From Mariniblastus sp. (lineage in GTDB: Bacteria > Planctomycetota > Planctomycetia > Pirellulales > Pirellulaceae), in assembly GCA_022447605.1 (NCBI GenBank), contig JAKVBG010000016.1, positions 28,376 through 92,375 of the forward strand: a stretch of DNA of 64,000 nucleotides, in the 5' to 3' direction. The notes beneath the pieces were generated by a model. That model saw only the letters and a program-made list of their open reading frames with translations, was not told where the DNA came from and did no database searches. Within the stretch, counting starts at the first letter, position 1. Each line of letters begins with the position of its first letter. Position numbers and translations under genes: made by a program. Shown here one piece after another: positions 9,860 through 43,632 of this stretch.

Positions 9860-10164
9860 GGCAGGCCGTCCAGAGTTGGCAGCTCGGTTTTCTCCCGATC
9901 CTGCGCCCAGCTGGTGGTGGTCTCGAGGTAACCGCCTCGTAGCATTGAGCAAGTCAGTTTTGATTTCGTCAGAATTTTCATTGATTAGTCATCGGTCTTA
10001 GTAGTTTTTGCTGCCATTCAGGAATTTCTTCAGAACGTTGGATCCCGCCATGCGTGTGTTGCCGGGGGAAATTCTAGCGAACCGACCGGTGGGTTGCTGT
10101 TCATGGTACGTTAACTGTTTAAAATCCGAATGAGAATGACAACCGGCAATTTTTGATCGAAGAA

Positions 10165-11604
10165 ATGCAAAACAAGACACTCGCTGATATTTCCCGCACC
10201 AAGACGATTGCCACGGTCGGACCCGCCTGCGAGTCGTTGCAGGTCCTGAAAGATCTGATCGACCGGGGCGTGGACGTTTTCCGGCTTAACATGGCCCATG
10301 GAGATCGGGAGAGCCACGAAACGGCCATCGCCCGCATTCGCCAGGCGGAAGACGACCTGCAGACCTCCGTCGCGATCCTGATCGACCTGGCCGGTCCGAA
10401 AATCCGTCTCGGTCAACTGGTCGAGGACCCGCGGGTAGTTGCCAATGGTCAGACCCTGACGTTTGTCCGGGGTGCCGAACCAAACTCTGCCGATGAGTTG
10501 ACCTGTACGTATGCTGGCCTCGTCGATGAAGTTCAGCCGGGCCAGGCAATTGTCCTGGCCGATGGTCTGGTCCGCCTGCAGGTGACGGGAAAAACGGAAG
10601 ATCGAGTCGAATGTGTCGTGGTCGATGGCGGCACGTTTCGCAGTCGCCAGGGGGTCAACCTGCCGGCCACGCAGCTCAGCATTCCTGCGCTGGGAGAAAA
10701 AGACCGGGATAATGCCATCTGGGCGACGAAGCAGTCAATCGATTTTGTCAGCCTCAGTTTCGTCCGGAACGCGTCCGAGATTGAGGAGTTGAAAGCGCTG
10801 CTGCGGGAACACGATTGCCAGGCGGGCGTGATCGCCAAAATCGAAAAACGGGAGGCGCTGGACAACCTGGAAGAGATCGTCCAGGCCTGTGATGGCGTGA
10901 TGGTTGCCCGTGGTGACTTGGGTGTTGAAATCGAGATTTACAAGACACCGGTCGCCCAGAAAAGAATTATCCACACCTGCCTGTTGCATCGCAAACCGGT
11001 GATTGTTGCTACACAGATGCTGGAGAGTATGCATACGTCCAAACAGCCGACGCGTGCCGAGGTCAGTGATGTGGCCAATGCAATCCTGGATGGTGCGGAC
11101 GCCTGCATGCTGTCGGGGGAAACTGCGATTGGACAATACCCGGCCGAGGCGGTCACCATGATGCAGCAGATCATGCTGGAAACGGAGCAATTGCTGAAAC
11201 GATCCGCCTCGAAGATTTCGGGCCCCGACGATTCCCATCAGAACGACGTTGCCGAGGCCGTGATGTTCGGCGCGGCGCAAATTGCCCAGCAGCTGGAGGC
11301 CAGGATCGTCGTGATATCGAGTTCGACCGGGGAAACTGCCTTGATCAAATCGAAACAGCGCGATTTTATCCCGACCGTTTGCCTGACCCACCACCGGTCG
11401 GTGGCCCGTTTCATCTGCCTCTACTGGGGAGTGATCCCTGTTTGTACCGATCAACCCCACCCGCCAGAACAGTTCCGGGCCTTTGTCAACGAGTGGGCAA
11501 AGTCCGTCGCCATGGGCCAGATCGGGGACCCAATCGTGATGGTCACCGACAACCAGTGGATGCCCGATGTCCACGACAATATTCTGGTCGGTCGCATCTC
11601 CTGA
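10165..11604 (+). CDS. pyk: Pyruvate kinase
   Basis: TKTIATVGPA, RLNMAHG, DLAGPKIR, AKIE, GVMVARGDLGVE, ATQMLESM, MLSGETA; ORF opens at TTG 10153. Confidence 0.99.
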   Translation: MQNKTLADISRTKTIATVGPACESLQVLKDLIDRGVDVFRLNMAHGDRESHETAIARIRQAEDDLQTSVAILIDLAGPKIRLGQLVEDPRVVANGQTLTFVRGAEPNSADELTCTYAGLVDEVQPGQAIVLADGLVRLQVTGKTEDRVECVVVDGGTFRSRQGVNLPATQLSIPALGEKDRDNAIWATKQSIDFVSLSFVRNASEIEELKALLREHDCQAGVIAKIEKREALDNLEEIVQACDGVMVARGDLGVEIEIYKTPVAQKRIIHTCLLHRKPVIVATQMLESMHTSKQPTRAEVSDVANAILDGADACMLSGETAIGQYPAEAVTMMQQIMLETEQLLKRSASKISGPDDSHQNDVAEAVMFGAAQIAQQLEARIVVISSSTGETALIKSKQRDFIPTVCLTHHRSVARFICLYWGVIPVCTDQPHPPEQFRAFVNEWAKSVAMGQIGDPIVMVTDNQWMPDVHDNILVGRIS

Positions 11605-11643
11605 CTGCCGTGTAGCTATTTCGATCAGGCGCGCGACAGGCAC

Positions 11644-11670
11644 AAAAAAACCCGCCGGTGAGGGCGGGTT
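11644..11670 (-). terminator. Rho-independent terminator (U-run on the minus strand; may also stop pyk)
   Basis: Minus strand AACCCGCC-CTCACC-GGCGGGTT running into TTTTTTT. Confidence 0.85.
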
Positions 11671-11897
11671 GTTTCGTCGTGAAAAACTGGTGGGCCGAGT
11701 TCGTATTTCGGCGATCGTTGGTCACGGCATGGTGTGACGGTTCCTTAGATTCACGAGTGACGTCCCTGTCTGAAACGTTGGCCCAATCCGGAGGATGTGG
11801 TTTCTCCCGCTCGGCTTCCCGTGGCCAAATCCCGTGAGTGATCTGGCACGATTTGCCCGGGGTCCACATGCGCCGTTTCGAACGTCGTCTTGGGCAT
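11644..11897 (-). ncRNA. Candidate ~250-nt small RNA (sigma54 promoter, eight GGA motifs, own terminator)
   Basis: Bounded by a -24/-12 promoter at 11908-11923 and the terminator at 11644-11670; no convincing protein ORF; nested complementary segments. Confidence 0.55.
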
Positions 11898-11907
11898 CCC
11901 GATCTAA

Positions 11908-11923
11908 AGCACTTGCCGTGCCA
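11908..11923 (-). promoter_or_regulatory. Sigma54 (-24/-12) promoter
   Basis: Minus strand TGGCACG-GCAA-GTGCT; GG (11922-11921) and GC (11910-11909) exactly 12 nt apart; one mismatch to TGGCACG-N4-TTGCW. Confidence 0.65.
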
Positions 11924-12069
11924 AACCGTGGCAAACCGTGGCAAAACAGCTGGGCCGCCATTTTACGACGCGCGGCTCGGTGCGGTGACTCGCCTTGTCT
12001 GTACTTTTGCTAATCGATTGTAGGAATTACCGATTGACTGCTTCCGCTTGACGGGTGCTGCCCATCACT

Positions 12070-12507
12070 TCAGGTGAGGTTTTTCAGCAAGCTGGATGTG
12101 ATAGCAGCAAACACGTCCCGCTTCTCATCGAATTCCCGACTCTCTGCCTGGCAACAGACGACCAAGGTCTGTCCTGGCATCGAGATGACGCTCAGGTTGG
12201 CCGTCACGAGGAAGTCGAGGCAATAGAAAAAAGCATCGGTACCGATGCTGGGATAAACCTCGTCCAGCAGGCTGGTCGAAACCTGGAATTCGACGTCCTG
12301 ATACTGGTCGACCAATCCCTGTTTCGCGTTGTCCAAAAGTTCCGCGGCATCGACATCGGGGGGGAACACGACCAGCGTCCAAAATCCACCCTCGGGGGTT
12401 TCCAGTGAGACTTCCCCCGAAAGTGGGTCGTCTTCAAACGTGTCACTGAGTTGCCACGTCTCGGGATAGGTAAATTCGATCTGGTCTCGTTTGAAGGTGG
12501 ATGTCAT
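12070..12507 (-). CDS. Hypothetical acidic protein (possibly PsbP/Mog1-like fold)
   Basis: Protein-like ORF from MTSTFKRDQIEFTYPETWQL; the fold guess rests only on the FxYPxxW start pattern. Confidence 0.65.
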   Translation of the reverse strand: MTSTFKRDQIEFTYPETWQLSDTFEDDPLSGEVSLETPEGGFWTLVVFPPDVDAAELLDNAKQGLVDQYQDVEFQVSTSLLDEVYPSIGTDAFFYCLDFLVTANLSVISMPGQTLVVCCQAESREFDEKRDVFAAITSSLLKNLT

Positions 12508-12687: not shown

Positions 12688-13626
12688 TTGAGCCAATTGT
12701 TGAACCTGAGATTGCGAAAGCTGACCCGTGGGTCAATCTTGGTTCTGGCATTGGCCGTCGTCGCTTCTACCGGCTGCCACGCCTTTCGGCCATTCCAGCA
12801 GGTCAACAACTCATTGGCCGATGCGCGACTTTGGGAACAGGGGGGACGGGAAGCCCTTTCTCATGGAAATATTGACGAGGCAAAAAACTGCCTCCGAAGA
12901 GCGATCAACAACGCGCCGGGTGATCGACAGATTCGCGAGCAATTGGCTGATATCTGCATGGAGCGAGATGAATATCCGGAAGCGATTGCCGAGTTGACAC
13001 GAGCGGTGGATCTGGCTGAAGAGGATGCCGAATTGCGGGTCAAGTTGGGACGCGCCTACTTGAAATGCGGGAAGCTGATTCCTGCCCAACGACAGGCCGA
13101 GTTGGCCCTGGAGACTGACCGGCAGTTGGCCTCGGCCTGGGAATTGTGTGGCCAGACCCATTGGGCCAAGAAAGAATTACCGGCAGCGGTGGCTGATTTG
13201 CAACGGGCTTTGAGCATTGAGCCAAAACGGCGCGGTGTCCAGGTCCAGATTGCCTGTCTACACCGGCAAATGGGCGAATCGAAGCGCGCCCTGTCAGGTA
13301 TTGAGCAGCTGCTGAGTCAATATCCGGATGGCCAGGAGCCACAGGATGCTCTTCTCCTGCAGGGAGTTGTGTTGATCGATCTGCATCAGTACTCATCGGC
13401 CATCGAACAGTTGCAGATGGCCGTCAACCGTAGCGATGCGACCTGCGAGGCGTTTGTTCAGTTATCACGGGCCCAATTCCTGGCCGGGCAACCATCACTG
13501 GCCCGGTCCACCTTGACCCGTGGATTGGAGAGGTACCCGGCAGAAGCGAAGTTGACCGCCCTGTTGAACCAGTTGCAGGAAATCGACAGCGGCCATGTGG
13601 CGACCACCGGATCATTGAAGCGTTGA
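12688..13626 (+). CDS. Tetratricopeptide-repeat protein, probable lipoprotein
   Basis: Signal-like N-terminus ending STGC; repeated helical A/L/G TPR patterns; TTG start. Confidence 0.8.
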   Translation: MSQLLNLRLRKLTRGSILVLALAVVASTGCHAFRPFQQVNNSLADARLWEQGGREALSHGNIDEAKNCLRRAINNAPGDRQIREQLADICMERDEYPEAIAELTRAVDLAEEDAELRVKLGRAYLKCGKLIPAQRQAELALETDRQLASAWELCGQTHWAKKELPAAVADLQRALSIEPKRRGVQVQIACLHRQMGESKRALSGIEQLLSQYPDGQEPQDALLLQGVVLIDLHQYSSAIEQLQMAVNRSDATCEAFVQLSRAQFLAGQPSLARSTLTRGLERYPAEAKLTALLNQLQEIDSGHVATTGSLKR

Positions 13627-13791: not shown

Positions 13792-14061
13792 ATGAAAAAC
13801 GGTAATGAAAATGGTACGCCCGGCCATTGCGTACCACCTGCCTATGTTGATCGAAGAAACTCGGCTGTGCCGTTGAATTATGGGGGCCATGAACGGCGCC
13901 AGTTCCGCGACTCTCACAGCGAACTGTCTGATGAGGCAGCCGAATTGGGTCGCGCCCTGGACCACTACAAGTTGACCCACCACCGTCGCTTCATTAACCA
14001 CGAAGAAATGCTGGAGGTGATTCGCTCACTCGGTTACCAAAAGGTGCCGCCTGCCTCCTAG
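13792..14061 (+). CDS. Small hypothetical protein (DRR...ERRQF; C-terminal HRRFIxxEExLxVIxxLGY)
   Basis: Protein-like composition; pattern resembles small conserved planctomycete proteins (recollection, not searched). Confidence 0.7.
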   Translation: MKNGNENGTPGHCVPPAYVDRRNSAVPLNYGGHERRQFRDSHSELSDEAAELGRALDHYKLTHHRRFINHEEMLEVIRSLGYQKVPPAS

Positions 14062-15047
14062 CGGCGAAACGAACCGAGTGGACCTTTCAATAGAGGTTCG
14101 GTTAACTGGTCAATCGACAGGAGCCCCAGCGTTTGACCGTCTTCTCGCATGATTCGAGCAATCGTTTCACGTTTGGATTGCATGGTGAGCAAGGCCTCAC
14201 CCAGCACTTCCTTTTCAGGGATTTCCATCATCGGACGCGCTTGTTGAATGGTCTCATTGGGCTGGTTGGCCAATAGCAGATCAATCGTCCGGACGTATCC
14301 AACGATACGGTTCCGGTTGGTTTGGTAGATGGGAATGTCAGCCAGTTCGTGCTTGCGCGCGTGTCGGATTGCCACCCCATTTTCGGTTCCCATCGGGAGC
14401 GGCAACGTCTTGTTCAAAGGTGTACAGACCGAACGCACCGGGTTCGAAGCGACCAGGAAAAAATTCTGACCCAGGTGTCGCTGGGTGGGGTGCAGGATGC
14501 CCGCCTGCTGGCCTTCGACCAGAACCTCCTGCAGTTCCTGTCGAGCCAACATCAGGCGGACCTTGTCGGGTGATTTCCCCAGTGTCCGTTCCAACAGGCG
14601 CGCCAGACCCCAGAGGATCAGGGCAATCGGTGTAAACAGCAAGGTGAACAACAGGAACAGCGGCCCGCCTCTGCGGAGCAACCGGTTGGGGGCGTTGTAA
14701 AACAGGTGCTTGGGCAGCAGTTCTCCGTAGACGAACAGGAACGGGGCAAACAGGATGGGCGCCAGCATCTCGGCCAGGCCGGCATCGCTGACGTAAAGGG
14801 TTCTGGTCAACAAAACGATGGCCAGGGAAGTCAGGTAGTTGGCGACATTATTTCCCACCAGCGTCGTTGCCACGAACAGCGTTGGGTTGTTGGCAAACTT
14901 CAGAAGGTACCTGGAGACGGAATCCCCATCCAGGCCATCCATCACCAGCCTGACCCGGCTGGCCCGGTAAAAGCCGGTTTCATTGCCGCTGAAAAAAGCG
15001 CTCAGGAAAACCCCGGCCAGCAACAGAATGACGGACACCCAGATCAT
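14058..15047 (-). CDS. CNNM (DUF21) domain protein with degenerate CBS pair
   Basis: SAFFSGNETGFY, TTLVGNNVAN, VYGELLPK; ATG at 15047 overlaps the stop of the upstream paralogue (ATGA). Confidence 0.85.
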   Translation of the reverse strand: MIWVSVILLLAGVFLSAFFSGNETGFYRASRVRLVMDGLDGDSVSRYLLKFANNPTLFVATTLVGNNVANYLTSLAIVLLTRTLYVSDAGLAEMLAPILFAPFLFVYGELLPKHLFYNAPNRLLRRGGPLFLLFTLLFTPIALILWGLARLLERTLGKSPDKVRLMLARQELQEVLVEGQQAGILHPTQRHLGQNFFLVASNPVRSVCTPLNKTLPLPMGTENGVAIRHARKHELADIPIYQTNRNRIVGYVRTIDLLLANQPNETIQQARPMMEIPEKEVLGEALLTMQSKRETIARIMREDGQTLGLLSIDQLTEPLLKGPLGSFRR

Positions 15048-16315
15048 GGCTGCTCCTCTTCCGATGGGTTCAGGGTCAGCTCGACGATCATGTGTCCCCG
15101 GTGCGGGATTTCCAGGACCCGGAAGTGCAGCGGTCCCCAATCGCATTGGTCGTTGGGCGTGGCCAGGCGCTGCATACTTTCCTGGATCACACCGGCCACG
15201 GTGACACTGTGGGTGTCCGGGATCGGTACGTTCAGTTCACGGCTCAGCCGGCGCAGGCTCATCATCCCGGAGACGACCCATTTCCCCTCTTCAATCTTGT
15301 GCAACGGGTTTTGATCCAACAGTCGCTTGGTTCGACTCGGGGCGTAATTGAAAACGGTTTCCAGGACGTCTTCGATCGTCAGGATGCCAATCGTCTCGCC
15401 ATATTCGTTCAGCACGACCGTTACTTCGCGGTCACGGTGGGACATTTTTTCCAGCGCGTCCGCCACGGTAGCGGACCAGGGCAGGTACAGGACCGGTTCA
15501 GCCAAACGTTCGACGTTTTCGTCCGGTAAATCAAACAACTTGTCCAGGCGGATGGCCTTGGCAATCTCCTCGGAATCGGGCTCCGTGACCAGCAGGTAAC
15601 CACTGGCCGGGACGGATCTCAGGTCGTTTAAACTGACGGGTGGCGTGTAATTGACGAACTGGGTCCGTGGCCGCATCCATTCATCGATCCGGATCTTGGA
15701 GAGTTGGACGATGTTCTGCAGGACGGCCTGTTCCTGCTTGATTACTGTGGCATCATTGTTGCCGGTCAGCTCAATGGCCCGCTCCAGGTCGCCCGTTTCC
15801 AGATAGGACTCTTCGCTGAACGAAGGGAGCAGGATCCTCCGCGATACGAGGTTAACCCCTTGTAGCACGGGCATGACCGGGTCGAGCAATCGTACGGCGA
15901 TCGACAAGGGTAGGCTCACAAAGCGCGTGATAGAACGTGGCTTGATCACGGCCAGGCTCTTGGGCAGCATTTCACTGAAAAAGATGATGGCCAGCAGGGA
16001 AAATACGGCGAACCCGATTCCTATGCTCTGGCCCAGTTGCGGGTCACTCTCCATCCGCAGCGAAATGATGGAACTGATGGTGAAATAGGCGATATTGATC
16101 ACCAGATTCCAGAATAGGACTGCCGATAACAGCCGGTCCGGATCACTCAGCAGCTTCCAGGCAAGCTGCTCAGCCGGTGTCCCATTTTTCAGGGAGCGGC
16201 GATCACTCGGGCGCAGGTAGAACAGGGCTGCTTCACTGGCGGAAAAAAATCCCGAACAGCAGACCAGGACGAACATTCCTATAAACCATGGCAAGAGTGG
16301 CAGTAGGTTATTCAT
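15044..16315 (-). CDS. CNNM (DUF21)-CBS-CorC/HlyC protein
   Basis: SGFFSASEAALF, FSEMLPKSLA, WMRPR, VVLNEYGETIGILTIEDVLE, C-terminal TVAGVI transporter-associated domain. Confidence 0.9.
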   Translation of the reverse strand: MNNLLPLLPWFIGMFVLVCCSGFFSASEAALFYLRPSDRRSLKNGTPAEQLAWKLLSDPDRLLSAVLFWNLVINIAYFTISSIISLRMESDPQLGQSIGIGFAVFSLLAIIFFSEMLPKSLAVIKPRSITRFVSLPLSIAVRLLDPVMPVLQGVNLVSRRILLPSFSEESYLETGDLERAIELTGNNDATVIKQEQAVLQNIVQLSKIRIDEWMRPRTQFVNYTPPVSLNDLRSVPASGYLLVTEPDSEEIAKAIRLDKLFDLPDENVERLAEPVLYLPWSATVADALEKMSHRDREVTVVLNEYGETIGILTIEDVLETVFNYAPSRTKRLLDQNPLHKIEEGKWVVSGMMSLRRLSRELNVPIPDTHSVTVAGVIQESMQRLATPNDQCDWGPLHFRVLEIPHRGHMIVELTLNPSEEEQP

Positions 16316-18137
16316 TCTCGGAAATTTTTGAGCGACCCGTGGAGACCAGGAACTCGCTCAACCTTGGCATGACCATGGCGGTGGTCGTGAATCCATAGGT
16401 GAAAGCGACCACCAATATGACGGACAGGTAGTTCTCCAGCAGGAGACTCGTAATCGAGTAGAACATCGCCAGTGGTAACACCGCCGAAGCGAGTACCAGG
16501 GCGGGTGACGGTGTATTCCAGCCCAGCGCGACGTACAATCCGATTGCACCACCGACGATGCAGGCCAGGAATGGAGTCAGTTGGGCTTCTACATTTCCGG
16601 TAAAGGAAACCATCATGACCATGCAAGTGACGATTCCCAGGAACAGGAAGAAAACAGTCCCCAGACTGACGCTGATCGCCTGGCGACTTCCGCCATACGA
16701 CATCCCGCAGTGAATCCCGAGAACGGTAACAAACACATTGAGGATGAGAACGGCTAATAGGAGATAGAGCAGGTTCTCCACCGTGATCGCACCGTTGAAG
16801 GCAAGGTACAGGCACATGGCGACCGGTATCAGCACGATGTCGATGGCGACATACAAGACCCCAAACACCTTGCCGAACAGGAATTCCTTGGGCGAAATAT
16901 CGGTGACCCGCAGCAAGTCGAGAGCACGGCCATCCCGTTCATTCGTGATCGATGTGACGGCTAATGCATTGACCATCACCAGGCTGACCAGCAGGAACGG
17001 GGCAAACGGGCGGGCGATGATCGGGATCGATACGGACGCATCGGCTGTCGCGCGGGTCGCTTCACCCATCAGGGAATAGAGGGCAACAAAGACCATCGCG
17101 GCCATCGCCCAGTAGGCGATTCGGATGAACAGGATTTTTCGTCCGTACGCCCAGGTGCACATTTCCCTCCACAGGATCGGGTTGTCCCAGACACGGCGGC
17201 TTTTCTGGTTGACCTTTCGCGACCGGTCATCGACATGGTGACTTGTGCCAGTTTGGGCGACTGGATTCCCCTCTTCGTCCAGTTTTACTTGTCCGGTAAA
17301 CAGGTCGACGTCACCGGAATATTCTTCTTGTTGCCCGGGACGCACCTCCCGGTTGGGGTTCCATTTGCGGACCCGGAAGACCGACAAACTGCAAAGCGAG
17401 ATGGTTAGGGCCGTGGCGAACAGAAGGTAGGGGACCACTTCGCTGGACCAGTTGGAGGCGACCGACGGGCTGCTGGCAGCCAGGATCGCCGAGATGGGGC
17501 TCATGGCCGACGATACCCATTCCGGATCCAAGCCCAAAATCGGTTGCTTGACCAGTCCGATTCCGGCCGCCAGGCCAATCCAAAAAACGATTGCCAGGGC
17601 AACCAGGGCCAAGGTCTGGAATGTTTTTTCTCGCCAGAGGGCAACCGTGGCACCAATGGATCCGGCAGTCAGGGCGGTGCTGAAAGTGACCGCGACGGTC
17701 CAGGCAACCTGGTCAAAGGAAGTCCCCCCAAACAGGACAATCAACATCAGGATCGGGATGCTGGTCATCAACATGACGCCATTGTTGAGGAGGCTGGAAA
17801 ACAGTTTTCCCAACACCAGTTCACTATTGGTCAGGCGACTCATCAGTAGCAAGATCAAGGTCTGCCTGTCTTTTTCCACCGCGATACTGCTGGCCGACTG
17901 AATGGCTGAGAGGAACAGGATGATGGCCAACTGAAGCGGGGCCAGGATCTGGAACAGGATGGCGCCAAAACGAGCCATGTCTCCAACATTTCGGATGACC
18001 TGAGTGCCTGCCAGGATCATCCAGGCGGTGCAGATCAACAGCAGCAGGGCCAAACCGTAGACGGTTCGCATCAAGTAATGCCGGGTCCGTCTCGGTGCGA
18101 CAACGGCTTCTCGAGAAAATACTGGACCGACCAACAA
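16308..18137 (-). CDS. ABC-2 type permease with internally duplicated membrane domain
   Basis: Two copies of the SIxxE(K/R)D.(T/A)L.LL...(L/I)...E...GK motif; many TM helices; TTG start. Confidence 0.85.
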   Translation of the reverse strand: MLVGPVFSREAVVAPRRTRHYLMRTVYGLALLLLICTAWMILAGTQVIRNVGDMARFGAILFQILAPLQLAIILFLSAIQSASSIAVEKDRQTLILLLMSRLTNSELVLGKLFSSLLNNGVMLMTSIPILMLIVLFGGTSFDQVAWTVAVTFSTALTAGSIGATVALWREKTFQTLALVALAIVFWIGLAAGIGLVKQPILGLDPEWVSSAMSPISAILAASSPSVASNWSSEVVPYLLFATALTISLCSLSVFRVRKWNPNREVRPGQQEEYSGDVDLFTGQVKLDEEGNPVAQTGTSHHVDDRSRKVNQKSRRVWDNPILWREMCTWAYGRKILFIRIAYWAMAAMVFVALYSLMGEATRATADASVSIPIIARPFAPFLLVSLVMVNALAVTSITNERDGRALDLLRVTDISPKEFLFGKVFGVLYVAIDIVLIPVAMCLYLAFNGAITVENLLYLLLAVLILNVFVTVLGIHCGMSYGGSRQAISVSLGTVFFLFLGIVTCMVMMVSFTGNVEAQLTPFLACIVGGAIGLYVALGWNTPSPALVLASAVLPLAMFYSITSLLLENYLSVILVVAFTYGFTTTAMVMPRLSEFLVSTGRSKISENE

Positions 18138-39599: not shown

Positions 39600-41441
39600 T
39601 TAGGTCCTTTTGAATCGACGATCTAGCTCTTCTCTGGAGAAAACCAGCGCGGTCGGCCGGCCGTGGGGGCAATGGTGTGCGTCCTGGCAATCGTCGCGGT
39701 GTTGGAGGAGGCTGTCAATTTCCTCCGGCGTCAATGGATCACCCGCCTTGATGGCCGCTTTGCACGAATACATGTGCAGCATTTCATCTACCAGATCCTG
39801 TTGGCCGAGAGAGCGACCGTCTGACATCACGAGTTCAACCATCCCGCGTAACATCTCGGCAGGATTGTGATTGGTCAGCATGGCTGGGTAGGCAGAAATC
39901 AGCAATGTGTCACCTCCGAATGGCTCGATGACCATCCCGATCTGGCGCAGCAGTTCCTGCCTTTCCAGCATCGCGGCGGCTTCGGCCGGGGGTAAGGTGA
40001 CCGGCTCGGGTACCAACAACCGCTGGGTTTCCAGCGTTCCATTCTGGACTCTCGACTTCAATTGTTCGTACAACACCCGCTCGTGCAGGGCATGTTGATC
40101 AATCACCAGCATGCCTTCTTCCGTTTCGGTTACCAGGTAGGTGTTTTGAATCTGCATCGCCCGGACCCGCTGGACCGGCTCCCCGCTAATGACCTGACTC
40201 TCTTCGGCCAACCGGGATGCGGATGACCACTCGGCCGCAGGTACAGGAAGATCACTCGGCTGAAAGGACGGGATCGCTCCGGTGGCTGGACGGGGGTTGG
40301 CCGTCCAGTCCCGTTGCGGTTCAGCGCGGGGGAAGGAGAGTTGTTCCTGGGTCTCCTGAGAGACGGGTAAATCCGAACCCCCTGTCGGCACGGGTTCCCG
40401 GGTCACCAGCTTGGCCCTGGCCGTCAAATCAGTTGCCAGGAACCGGTTGCGGATCGTGCTCAACAGCTGACTGTAGAGCTTGCCGCCATTCTGGAATCGA
40501 ACTTCCAGCTTGGCGGGGTGTACGTTGACGTCAACCTGGTCAGCTGCCATCTGCATGCGCAAAAAAGCAACTGGATAACGCCCCGTCATCAACAGCCCGC
40601 GGTAAGACTCGCTCAAGGCGTGCTGGAGTGATCGGTCCCGAATGTAACGACCGTTGAGGAACAGGTATTGCATCCGGTTGTTGGCCCGGTTGACCGAGGG
40701 ATCGACAACGAATCCGGATAGTTCAATTCCGAAATCATGGCTGTTGACCTCAATCAGACCACTGCCAATTTCAGGTCCGAAAAACGTGCCGATGCGCTCC
40801 GACCAATCGTTGGTCGATGGCAGATCGAATTGCTGTTTGCCGTTATGCGTCAATGACATGTGCAGTGCGGGATTGGCCAGGGCAATCCGTGTAAAGGCCT
40901 CGAGAATATGGCCCCGCTCGGTCTGCATCGTCTTCAGGAATTTTCTGCGGACCGGGGTGTTGTAAAACAGGTTCTGTACGGTGATCGATGTGCCGACTGA
41001 CATACCGGTTGGCTCAACGGGAATCCGTTGGCCACCGTTGACGGCCAACTCGTAACCGCAGTCATCGTGGGCAGTACGACTGCGCAATAAGAATTGACTG
41101 ACTTCGGCGATGGAGGCCAACGCTTCTCCGCGAAAGCCGAAGGTGGCGACTTCGAAAAGGTCGTTGGCATCCTGGATTTTACTGGTTGCGTGGCTGGTCA
41201 CGGCCAACTCCAGTTGGTCTGGACCAATCCCACAGCCATTGTCAGTTACGCGAATCAGGTCGATCCCGCCATTGTCCAGAGCGACGTCGATTCGGGTGGC
41301 CCCGGCATCCACCGAGTTCTCCAGCAGTTCCTTGACCACGCTGGCCGGACGTTCGATCACTTCGCCGGCGGCAATCTTGTTGACGACGCTTGTCGAAAGC
41401 TGGCGAATAGGACGGGGTTGAACCTGGGCCATGATACTCAT
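39600..41441 (-). CDS. mutL: DNA mismatch repair endonuclease MutL
   Basis: KIAAGEVIERPASVVKELLENS, DNGCGI, TFGFRGEALASI, DVNVHPAK, DQHALHERVLYE, CPHGRP. Confidence 0.99.
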   Translation of the reverse strand: MSIMAQVQPRPIRQLSTSVVNKIAAGEVIERPASVVKELLENSVDAGATRIDVALDNGGIDLIRVTDNGCGIGPDQLELAVTSHATSKIQDANDLFEVATFGFRGEALASIAEVSQFLLRSRTAHDDCGYELAVNGGQRIPVEPTGMSVGTSITVQNLFYNTPVRRKFLKTMQTERGHILEAFTRIALANPALHMSLTHNGKQQFDLPSTNDWSERIGTFFGPEIGSGLIEVNSHDFGIELSGFVVDPSVNRANNRMQYLFLNGRYIRDRSLQHALSESYRGLLMTGRYPVAFLRMQMAADQVDVNVHPAKLEVRFQNGGKLYSQLLSTIRNRFLATDLTARAKLVTREPVPTGGSDLPVSQETQEQLSFPRAEPQRDWTANPRPATGAIPSFQPSDLPVPAAEWSSASRLAEESQVISGEPVQRVRAMQIQNTYLVTETEEGMLVIDQHALHERVLYEQLKSRVQNGTLETQRLLVPEPVTLPPAEAAAMLERQELLRQIGMVIEPFGGDTLLISAYPAMLTNHNPAEMLRGMVELVMSDGRSLGQQDLVDEMLHMYSCKAAIKAGDPLTPEEIDSLLQHRDDCQDAHHCPHGRPTALVFSREELDRRFKRT

Positions 41442-41444
41442 CCT

Positions 41445-42857
41445 CTACCGCAGTTCATATTCGTTGAGCTTGCGATACAGATTTCGCTCACTGATTCCCA
41501 GAATCGTCGAAGTCTCTTCACGGTTTCCGCCTGTCAGTTTTAACGTATTCTCGATGGCCCAGCGTTCGATCTCTTTGAGGGAGCGGCCGACCAGGTCGGA
41601 GTTGTCTTCTAGTGATATCATTGCCGACGGCCCGGTCGATTCGCTGACAGGTTGCTCGTCGATCAAGTCGGGCGAAAGGTCATCCACCCCCAGGATCCCG
41701 TCCAGGTCCATGACGACCAGGCTCTCAACCACGTTTTTCAACTGCCTGACATTTCCTTTCCAGTCAAAGTCAAGCATCCACCGTCGCAGTTCCTGCGTGA
41801 ATGTTTTCGTCTGTTTGTGATTTTTCTTGTTCGCCTGTTTCCTGAAATGGTCCGCCAGGGGCAGGATGTCATCTCGTCGCCGGGAAAGTGGATCCAGATG
41901 GACGGTCACGATTTTCAGCCGAAAATAGAGATCGCTCCGAAACCGGCCGGCTTCTACCTCCGCTTCGAGGTCCTTGTTCGTTGCCGCCAACACACGGACG
42001 TTGACGTGGATCGGTTTGTTGTCGCCAACGCGTGTTATTTCCCGTTCTTCCAGGACGCGCAGCAATTTGATTTGGGTTGGCATCGGCATGTCGCCGACTT
42101 CGTCCAGGAACAACGTGCCACCGTTGGCGTACTCAAACTTGCCTTGCCGATCGGTAATGGCATCGGTAAAGGCACCTTTGACATGCCCAAACAACTCGCT
42201 TTCTACCAGATGCTCGGCAACGGCTGCTGTATTGATTGCCACGAACGGCTTTTTCTTGCGCGGGCTGTTCTGGTGGATTGCCTGGGCAATCACATCTTTA
42301 CCTGTCCCGGTTTCACCCGTGATCAATACACCGGCGTCGGTGGGGGCGATGCGGCGCACCCGATCGACGACCCGGTTCATGCTGTCACTTGCGTAAACCA
42401 GGTTCTCGAATCCGAATTTTTCGTCCAGCCGACGTTGCAACTGCTGATTGGTCTGTCGCAATCTGACGGAGTCTGCCGCTTTCGAAGCGACGACCTGGAG
42501 TCGCTTGGGCGTAATTGGTTTCTCGAGAAAATTGAAGGCGCCCTGCCGCATGGCATCCACGGCGCGAGGTACCGTGGCGTGACCGGTTACCATGATGACT
42601 TCACAGTCCGGCTGCGTTTCCTTGGCCAGACCCAGGATGTCCATTCCGTCGACATCATTCATCATCAGGTCGGTAACGATGATATGGTAGATGTTCTCCT
42701 GGATCAGTTCCGAGCCCTCCTGGCCGGACGTGGCGCAGGTGCATTCGAACCCGATCCGGTCAAGGCTCTCGGTCATTGCCCGGGCGAGGTCCTTGTCGTT
42801 ATCGACAATCAGCACACTGATCGCTTGGATTTTTGTATTTTCTTGCTCTTCGTCCAT
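41445..42857 (-). CDS. Sigma54-dependent response regulator (NtrC family: REC-AAA+-HTH)
   Basis: Receiver VDND...TDLMM...FLEKP; GETGTGKD, ESELFGH, GAFTDA, LFLDEVG, RSDLYFRL, GNVRQL; C-terminal HTH. Confidence 0.96.
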   Translation of the reverse strand: MDEEQENTKIQAISVLIVDNDKDLARAMTESLDRIGFECTCATSGQEGSELIQENIYHIIVTDLMMNDVDGMDILGLAKETQPDCEVIMVTGHATVPRAVDAMRQGAFNFLEKPITPKRLQVVASKAADSVRLRQTNQQLQRRLDEKFGFENLVYASDSMNRVVDRVRRIAPTDAGVLITGETGTGKDVIAQAIHQNSPRKKKPFVAINTAAVAEHLVESELFGHVKGAFTDAITDRQGKFEYANGGTLFLDEVGDMPMPTQIKLLRVLEEREITRVGDNKPIHVNVRVLAATNKDLEAEVEAGRFRSDLYFRLKIVTVHLDPLSRRRDDILPLADHFRKQANKKNHKQTKTFTQELRRWMLDFDWKGNVRQLKNVVESLVVMDLDGILGVDDLSPDLIDEQPVSESTGPSAMISLEDNSDLVGRSLKEIERWAIENTLKLTGGNREETSTILGISERNLYRKLNEYELR

Positions 42858-43632
42858 GCCGCGATGATACAAAAACCGGCGGCCAGCGTCGACCAGCACT
42901 CGTTTCAACTCCCGTCCGGAATGAAGGGACCAGGTCTCGGTGAGCGGTAACGCGTCGCTTTGGCAGACCGGGATCAGAGCGTTCCTGCATCGGCAGGTGT
43001 GGTTTCCGCAAGCATGTATGGGATGGATTTAACGTGGAGGCAATTTCAGGTTATTCTCGGGAAATAAAGGGAGCCCCCAGTGACGGTTCCCAAAAAATGG
43101 ACGGAATGGCCCCCGTTTCGCTGATTTCTTACGGGTTGCATATTATCTCGACAATCTTCCTGGTGGGAGAACTCTGTTTGTCAGGTTCTTGTTTTACGGC
43201 CGCTTTCGAGAACTGGGCAACAGCGCCCAGCTGCGCGCGGATGTGCCGAAACGAGAGTCCCCTCTGGCGATACTCTCGTTTTTCCTGCGACCAGTACCGG
43301 TCGCTTCCTTTGCGACCCAATTGCCCGCGGTCGGATGGCTAGATCCCTGCGTCGTCATGCTGGGTCAACGGGTCCTGATCCGATGATGTGAATGATCGGA
43401 ATAATCTGGCCAATTCAGGTAGCGGGGGTATTTGGATCGCGAAAACCGGGATTCCTGAACGGGGATTAATGGTTCAATAATCGCCCGGGCGAAGATAGAA
43501 TTAATAGCTGCGAGGTAGCCGTCCCACCGCTGGCCCGGCTGTCTCACGAACCCCACAGGGATGACCGTCCAACGGGGCGTAGGTCGGCTGTGTGGAATTG
43601 ATCGATCCAGGTTTTCTTGATTTCCAGACCCC

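Follow-up and report, generated by a model that had tools for sequence, protein, structure and literature searches.

What is transcribed from the minus strand beside the pyruvate kinase gene pyk in a planctomycete of the genus Mariniblastus? The window analysed here is a stretch of 64,000 nucleotides (nt) from Mariniblastus sp. (GenBank assembly GCA_022447605.1, contig JAKVBG010000016.1, positions 28,376 to 92,375 of the forward strand), and the locus in question lies at window positions 11644 to 11923. An earlier interpretation made from the letters alone, called the sequence-only reading below, had placed a sigma54-dependent, GGA-rich small RNA here, between pyk and a hypothetical gene. It proposed a sponge for CsrA/RsmA, with a 6S-like RNA or a leaderless 48-codon open reading frame (ORF) as alternatives. 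Comparison with related genomes strongly supports an independent small RNA gene with a sigma54-type promoter that ends at the predicted terminator, and the evidence comes from the promoter, an upstream palindrome and a covarying core. The gene is predicted to run from 11897 to 11644 on the minus strand. It is strongly supported as a structured non-coding RNA of about 254 nt from an undescribed family, which is confined to the order Pirellulales as far as we searched.

A predicted sigma54-dependent transcription unit beside pyk

The promoter TGGCACGGCAAGTGC (Table 1) has the canonical -24/-12 spacing (TGGCAC-N5-TTGC-like), with GTGC where TTGC is usual, and is the only TGGCAC-N6-TGC site of the whole window. 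The match taken alone proves nothing, since about one such site per window is expected by chance (0.72 per shuffled window). When the C of the GC element is taken as position -12, the predicted start is 11897, where the sequence-only reading had put it. A strong terminator had been expected about 250 nt further on. The sole strong minus-strand terminator nearby has a stem of eight pairs, six of them G-C, followed by TTTTT(TT), and gives a unit of 254 nt. It is separated by 40 nt from the stop codon of pyk on the opposite strand. The pyk gene (10153-11604, plus strand; PF00224, E=1.7e-107) converges on the RNA locus; on the other flank, a hypothetical gene on the minus strand ends at 12070 and is followed by an intergenic stretch. 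The minimum-free-energy fold of the unit (-89 kcal/mol, z=-2.2) contains the nested pairings that had been noticed before.

Searched at the DNA level, 72 genomes of the genus yielded three full-length homologues, in G051 (82% identity), G044 (78%) and G008 (72%), all flanked by the same two genes as the window's copy. In their alignment, conservation sets in abruptly at GTTTGGCACG, the -24 element, and extends to the terminator. The 60 nt upstream of this element are unrelated among the close homologues, whereas the promoter is kept.

A covarying RNA core shared across Pirellulales

Two covariance models were used: R1, made from the last 127 nt of the unit, and R2, rebuilt from the R1 matches. 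At E<=0.1, R1 matched in 41 of the 72 genus genomes, as single copies, and about 29 of these loci were convincing. R2 matched in 39 of 151 genomes sampled from the order, belonging to 25 of 96 genera and almost always with one copy per genome. It gave zero matches in 150 genomes from the remainder of the Planctomycetota. An unfiltered model search recovered the RNA in 11 of 17 loci that had first been picked up only by the palindrome-plus-promoter pattern described below, so that the filtered scan underestimates how common the family is in the order.

The 96 matches, which come from Mariniblastus and numerous other Pirellulales, represent 82 distinct sequences and have one architecture in common. 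A 7-bp helix, P1, surrounds an internal loop, a short G-C helix and two hairpins, and an intrinsic terminator follows. In the window, P1 is formed by 11756-11750 with 11683-11677, and in the internal loop UCUAA (11749-11745) faces AGUUU (11688-11684), the family form being a 5x5 loop of UCUnA and AGUUU. The short helix pairs GG at 11744-11743 with CC at 11690-11689, and hairpins P2 and P3 occupy 11738-11721 and 11712-11694. The core measures about 80 nt, or 127 nt with the flanking hairpin and the terminator included, and RNAs of the family are 150-330 nt long.

Across the 82 sequences, pairing was found in 94.2% of the alignment cells, compared to 36-50% when the 3' partners were slid by 1-3 columns. 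Covariation across related loci had been proposed as a check, and it came out clearly: compensatory, both-sided changes were found at 26 of 27 pairs, and 0 of 500 shuffles matched the observed values. All eight pairs of the terminator helix covaried across the family. The result was reproduced on the first sequence set and on a set reached independently via the neighbouring protein. The unpaired letters that are invariant, A-UCU-n-AG and C..UUUU, stand on either side of the internal loop, within the covarying helix. A search of Rfam 15 at E<=10 over 11300-12300, which had also been suggested, gave no family match and only terminator-type chance matches, and literature searches gave no description of this RNA.

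For the 5' domain, an alignment is possible only with the three Mariniblastus relatives. Elsewhere in the family, the length of this region ranges from 11 to about 220 nt and its sequence is unrelated, and the GGA-bearing 5' part of about 125 nt is confined to one Mariniblastus clade. The distance from promoter to core ranges from 37 to 250 nt across the family; the 5' domain is therefore variable.

The promoter and an enhancer-like palindrome are conserved with the core

The promoter that had been read from one sequence recurs across the family. Within 300 nt upstream of the core, the strict form TGGCAY-N5-NTGC was found at 45 of 58 loci and a relaxed form (CGGCAC..., ...TCGC) at 52, with a chance expectation of about 0.005 per 300 nt. 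All 52 promoter-bearing loci also have a 13-bp palindrome, TGTAA-N3-TTACA, matching at at least 8 of 10 positions and located 90-158 nt upstream of the -24 element. At least nine positions matched in 49 of the 52 loci, versus 2 of 286 control pieces taken from these loci. In the window, the palindrome is GGTAATTCCTACA, with its centre about 128 nt upstream of the predicted start. The palindrome has the position and the form of a site for a bacterial enhancer-binding protein (bEBP), and we infer that such a protein binds it.

How often this arrangement occurs was measured with an exact pattern (the palindrome, 80-155 nt, then GGCAC-N6-TGC), with the reversed pattern as a control. The pattern was present in 38 of the 151 order genomes, once in each save two with two copies, one of which was a duplicated contig. 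It occurred 0-1 times per genome in 149 of 151, and the reversed control gave three matches in total. In the checked loci that also had a model match (e.g. G036 and G153), the pattern immediately precedes the RNA. In the window's own genome, labelled G000 and represented by a 94%-complete assembly, the relaxed palindrome-promoter combination occurs at this locus alone. One exception was seen in G152, where the pattern (C32:68431-68578) and the RNA model match (C11:1835-1966) are on different contigs. No RNA core was found downstream of the C32 pattern in that genome, and this stray copy may be a second activator target or a chance match.

Taken together, these comparisons strongly support a gene with three conserved layers: the palindrome about 90-160 nt upstream of the promoter, the -24/-12 sigma54 promoter, and the RNA itself with its variable 5' domain, core and terminator.

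How the RNA might be made and how it might act

We consider it likely that the locus is an enhancer-dependent sigma54 gene for a structured RNA which is the dedicated output of one bEBP and which probably binds a protein. A signal would activate one dedicated bEBP; this protein would bind the palindrome and drive sigma54 RNA polymerase to make the RNA. The RNA would be the main or only direct output of the pathway, as in LuxO-Qrr or GlrR-GlmY, because the palindrome-plus-promoter combination occurs essentially once per genome. Acting in trans, it would then serve as decoy or scaffold to a protein other than CsrA.

That the invariant internal loop is the protein-binding platform of an RNA acting in trans is a tentative proposal, and it may well turn out otherwise. 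A protein-binding role is favoured because the most conserved letters form an internal loop framed by covarying helices, because the seed-like 5' part is variable, and because no Hfq could be detected. The last point comes from a search of the 94%-complete genome, which gave no PF17209 match, and it argues against a classical Hfq-dependent seed RNA. The most complete version of the proposal would make the family the single dedicated output of one sigma54 bEBP, have it work as a protein decoy or scaffold via the internal loop, and tie it to the neighbouring module of a PsbP-fold protein, a tetratricopeptide-repeat (TPR) protein, an 89-aa protein and often an ABC-2 permease. As a whole, this version is doubtful.

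Several results weigh against a protein-binding RNA made under one dedicated activator. The alignments behind the pair counts were all fitted to the model, so that the share of paired cells is inflated; even so, the many G-C/A-U exchanges in P1, P2, P3 and the terminator cannot be explained by fitting alone. The window's palindrome, at 8 of 10 positions, is the weakest of the family. No bEBP was found within 8 kb on either side of the RNA at 21 loci. The activator was also sought by co-occurrence, with a tree of 81 bEBPs from four RNA-positive and three RNA-negative genomes and then with an order-wide test in the 151 genomes, and neither of two candidate clades held. The best clade of the tree is represented in the window's genome by the bEBP on contig C124, whose N-terminal sequence marks it as FHA-type; this clade occurs in 110 of 151 genomes, RNA-negative families among them, and one RNA-positive family (f16) lacks it. 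The other clade, G126 L205, was found only in RNA-positive genomes in the tree, lacks a G000 member and is widespread among genomes without the RNA. The adjacent 145-aa protein is also disfavoured as the partner: it is strongly acidic (pI 4.05) and is therefore unlikely to bind RNA itself. Finally, a protein-binding mode is what we infer from the conservation pattern alone.

The window's genome encodes one rpoN and eight full bEBPs. One of the eight, an NtrC-type response regulator (REC, sigma54-interaction and HTH_8 domains), lies in the window at 41445-42908 on the minus strand, immediately before mutL (39600-41441). Its orthologues occur in RNA-positive and RNA-negative genomes alike, so nothing marks it out as the activator. 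Palindrome-like sites were seen near two bEBP genes of G000, and these were not at promoter positions. In one family, an FHA-type bEBP orthologous to that of the window's genome (C124:38175-40070) lies about 17 kb from the RNA gene (G126 C1:944151-945971; G197 C3:864589-865368). Across the order, the presence of the FHA-type bEBP does not track that of the RNA.

Other explanations of the locus

A different way of acting in trans would be base pairing. The RNA would then be a Qrr-like small RNA (sRNA) that pairs through a conserved single-stranded segment, with the three-way junction merely stabilising it, and its seed could be the U-rich loop strand or else the 5' end, which reads CCAAGACGACGUUCGAAAC in the window and UGUUCGACCCAG in other families. 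Within clades the 5' ends are conserved, GUUCGA is common to them, and the promoter logic is the same as that of Qrr. A seed at the 5' terminus together with an intrinsic terminator is a common sRNA layout. The genome, however, has no detectable Hfq, the best-conserved letters lie in a structured internal loop and not in a free strand, and the fold predicts pairing between the 5' segment and the stretch that immediately precedes the core. There was also no excess of complementarity to the 5' regions of linked genes: for the 145-aa gene and the divergent TPR gene, the duplex energies and the longest complementary words were no better than those of shuffles. Base pairing is thus possible but is not what we would expect.

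The RNA could instead act in cis or be a by-product, either as the 3' untranslated region (3'-UTR) of the 145-aa gene or as an antisense or terminator element on the convergent pyk. The tight linkage to the 145-aa gene is consistent with this, as is the fact that no terminator was detected between that gene and the RNA promoter, which would allow read-through. The terminator, 40 nt from the pyk stop codon, could serve both strands. Yet the RNA has its own conserved promoter and enhancer-like site, it ends before pyk, and the linkage to pyk is limited to the genus. At 11 loci, the RNA and the 145-aa gene are convergent. Because of these convergent arrangements and of the RNA's own promoter, the 3'-UTR version is excluded, and a cis-acting or by-product RNA of either kind is very unlikely.

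The sponge proposal, in which multiple GGA motifs would titrate one or more CsrA proteins, was attractive and appears to be wrong; the promoter had been read correctly. A search of the genome for csrA did find six matches to PF02599, and the sponge could act on any of these six paralogues. A point in favour of the sponge is that sigma54 promoters are reported for csrA genes of Pirellula sp. strain 1 (PMC12316311). A short hairpin just 5' of the core presents a GGA (Table 1), and this hairpin and an AAGG about 20 nt further on are semi-conserved in Mariniblastus. By our own count, a GGA stands at that place in about 23 of 28 genus-level sequences, with the letters of the stem varying; other families often have AUGACG in place of the hairpin.

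The GGA content itself does not bear the sponge out. Eight motifs had been listed for the first 160 nt or so; seven of them lie inside the first 160 nt of the transcript, and the eighth, GGGAUG, straddles the start. Seven compares to 5.5 +/- 1.5 in dinucleotide-preserving shuffles (P=0.25), and the chance expectation of about three that had been offered corresponds to a mononucleotide estimate (3.7). None of 52 family members was enriched in GGA (mean z -0.6), and several have no GGA at all. Among the closest relatives, seven of the eight listed motifs are not conserved, and only CAGGGAC is kept in all four closest sequences. The AAGG of the internal loop, which resembles a Shine-Dalgarno sequence, is replaced outside the genus by UUAG plus any base, and no match to the CsrB or RsmX/Y/Z covariance models was found. 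A CsrA sponge is therefore not supported by these comparisons, and we regard it as highly improbable. One of the CsrA paralogues (C148:20900-21055) lies 6 kb from a bEBP gene (C148:14014-14511) in the window's genome.

A 6S-like RNA that binds RNA polymerase had been named as an alternative. The 5' domain does fold as an irregular rod, the length is similar to that of 6S, which is likewise a structured regulatory RNA and abundant, and the canonical 6S model had no match elsewhere in the genome. The rod-like domain is lineage-specific, though; what is conserved is a three-way junction that lacks a central bubble, and RF00013 gave no signal at E<=10. 6S RNA is near-universal, whereas this family is limited to a single order, and many genomes of that order lack it. 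The activator-dependent sigma54 promoter is, to our knowledge, unlike those of known 6S genes. The 6S reading is hardly credible on these grounds.

A leaderless mRNA for a 48-aa protein (MPKTTFET...) is no more credible: the ORF (11897-11751) exists and begins exactly at the predicted start, but G044 and G008 lack its ATG, in G051 the frame is shifted by 2 extra nt behind codon 3, it has no family match and its region is absent from other family members, so that, as the conserved feature of the locus, it is refuted by the sequences.

Comparison with known regulatory RNAs

Qrr RNAs of Vibrio, made under LuxO and sigma54, resemble this RNA in their sigma54 promoter, in a 13-bp palindrome (5-N3-5) that lies upstream of it, and in being sRNAs that end at a terminator. 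They are also the principal output of one response-regulator-type bEBP, as the RNA here would be. The LuxO site is TTGCA-N3-TGCAA, and the half-site here is TGTAA, not TTGCA. There is no similarity in sequence or structure: neither RF00378 nor the 32-nt Qrr seed was found here, and no Rfam family matched. Qrr RNAs are about 100 nt long, usually multi-copy and Hfq-dependent, with a linear seed, in contrast to a single-copy RNA of 150-330 nt with a three-way junction in a genome without detectable Hfq.

GlmY, which is made under GlrR and sigma54 in Enterobacteriaceae, is the closest analogue of the favoured mode of action. It is an enhancer-dependent sigma54 sRNA whose function resides in a conserved stem-loop and not in a seed, and it serves as a decoy for the protein RapZ (PMC4152352, PMC7073468). 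GlmY has no homology to the RNA described here, forms a pair with GlmZ and regulates glmS; we found no evidence here for a partner RNA, for RapZ or for a linkage to glmS. CsrB, RsmX/Y/Z and CrcZ are likewise regulatory RNAs that titrate proteins, and in this they are like the favoured reading. CrcZ depends on sigma54 and CbrB. The repeated motifs of these RNAs (GGA in loops; CA-rich, A-rich motifs) are neither enriched nor conserved in the family described here.

The sole candidate RNA motif that we found described for relatives in the Pirellulales is the Rhodopirellula-1 motif. It consists of one bulged hairpin, for which 153 copies are listed (marked 'rep'), and it stands 5' of short genes and occurs in Proteobacteria too (Weinberg et al. 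2010, PMC2864571). Identity with this motif was ruled out, as the RNA here is single-copy and has a three-way junction and a promoter and terminator of its own.

No functionally characterised regulatory RNA for the Planctomycetota was found in the literature searched. The RNA described here would be of a known kind, an enhancer-dependent sigma54 regulatory RNA; what appears to be new is this Pirellulales family, whose structure is well supported by covariation. The family comprises 82 distinct members with clear covariation; its control region is complete and, like the protein next to it, conserved. It offers several handles: the palindrome could lead to the activator and its signal, the invariant loop to the partner, and the covariance model to a cultivable carrier strain. 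If the dedicated-output model holds, circuits of one activator and one sRNA, like LuxO-Qrr and GlrR-GlmY, would reach far outside the Proteobacteria. A dedicated protein-decoy or scaffold RNA, if true, would mean a new RNA-centred signalling pathway in the Planctomycetota. The analysis also corrects the sponge annotation of the locus.

Features and neighbouring genes of the locus

Table 1. Features at and around the RNA gene, in window coordinates.
Feature	Position	Strand	Remarks
Enhancer-like palindrome GGTAATTCCTACA	12019-12031	minus	8/10 match to the TGTAA-N3-TTACA consensus
Three tandem decamers TTTGCCACGG TTTGCCACGG TTTGGCACGG	11916-11945	minus	read from the sequence; third copy holds the -24 GG
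Sigma54-type promoter TGGCACGGCAAGTGC	11909-11923	minus	-24 GG at 11922-11921; -12 GC at 11910-11909
5' RNA domain	11771-11897	minus	lineage-specific; predicted irregular rod; most GGA motifs and the 48-codon ORF
Short hairpin GAC-AGGGAC-GUC	11759-11770	minus	GGA presented just 5' of the core; resembles a CsrA site
Three-way-junction core	11677-11756	minus	covariance models R1 and R2
Intrinsic terminator	11644-11670	minus	stem 11670-11649; U-run 11648-11644
145-aa linked protein gene	12070-12507	minus	start placed at a conserved Met, not at the 208-codon TTG

The gene for the 145-aa protein adjoins the RNA in 46 of 58 loci, mostly in tandem and, as mentioned above, convergently in 11, where the RNA terminator abuts the 3' end of the gene. 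Seen from the protein side, the RNA lies within 1.2 kb in 34 of 77 loci (named genomes); Bremerella species have the protein without an adjacent RNA. The linkage of the RNA to pyk, on the other flank, is confined to the genus.

The 145-aa protein has no Pfam or NCBIfam match of its own, and weak matches to PsbP_2 (PF18933) were found in 10 of 18 relatives. An AlphaFold2 model (pLDDT 91.7) was compared with known structures by Foldseek, which returned PsbP, DcrB and Eag/SciW chaperones (SciW/EagT6) at E=3e-6 to 3e-4 and TM scores of about 0.5-0.65. It is an acidic, cytoplasmic protein with a predicted PsbP/DcrB/Eag-like fold.

This protein is part of a conserved block with a divergently oriented TPR protein (12688-13626) and an 89-aa protein without a family match (13792-14061). 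An ABC-2 type permease (16308-18137) joins the block in 11 of 21 loci. The constant neighbourhood may mark the process that the RNA controls. The permease is adjacent in other genomes and is displaced here by two CNNM/CorC genes. These occupy 14058-16315 on the minus strand and encode tandem CNNM-domain transporter paralogues inserted in the block, the second with additional CBS and CorC_HlyC domains.

Two further features concern the RNA gene itself. The triplication of the decamer in the -24 region is local to the window's genome and occurs in none of the three closest homologues, and the GG stands in the last copy alone. It could have arisen by slippage or could provide decoy half-sites for sigma54. 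Outside Mariniblastus (loci L049-L077), the RNAs have a common 5' end, YGCUCAUGUUCGACCCAGUUGG, and a first hairpin with a CCCGCA loop; the long G+C-rich terminator often has CCGCA in its loop too. This repeated motif, which the window's RNA lacks, might be a second recognition element.

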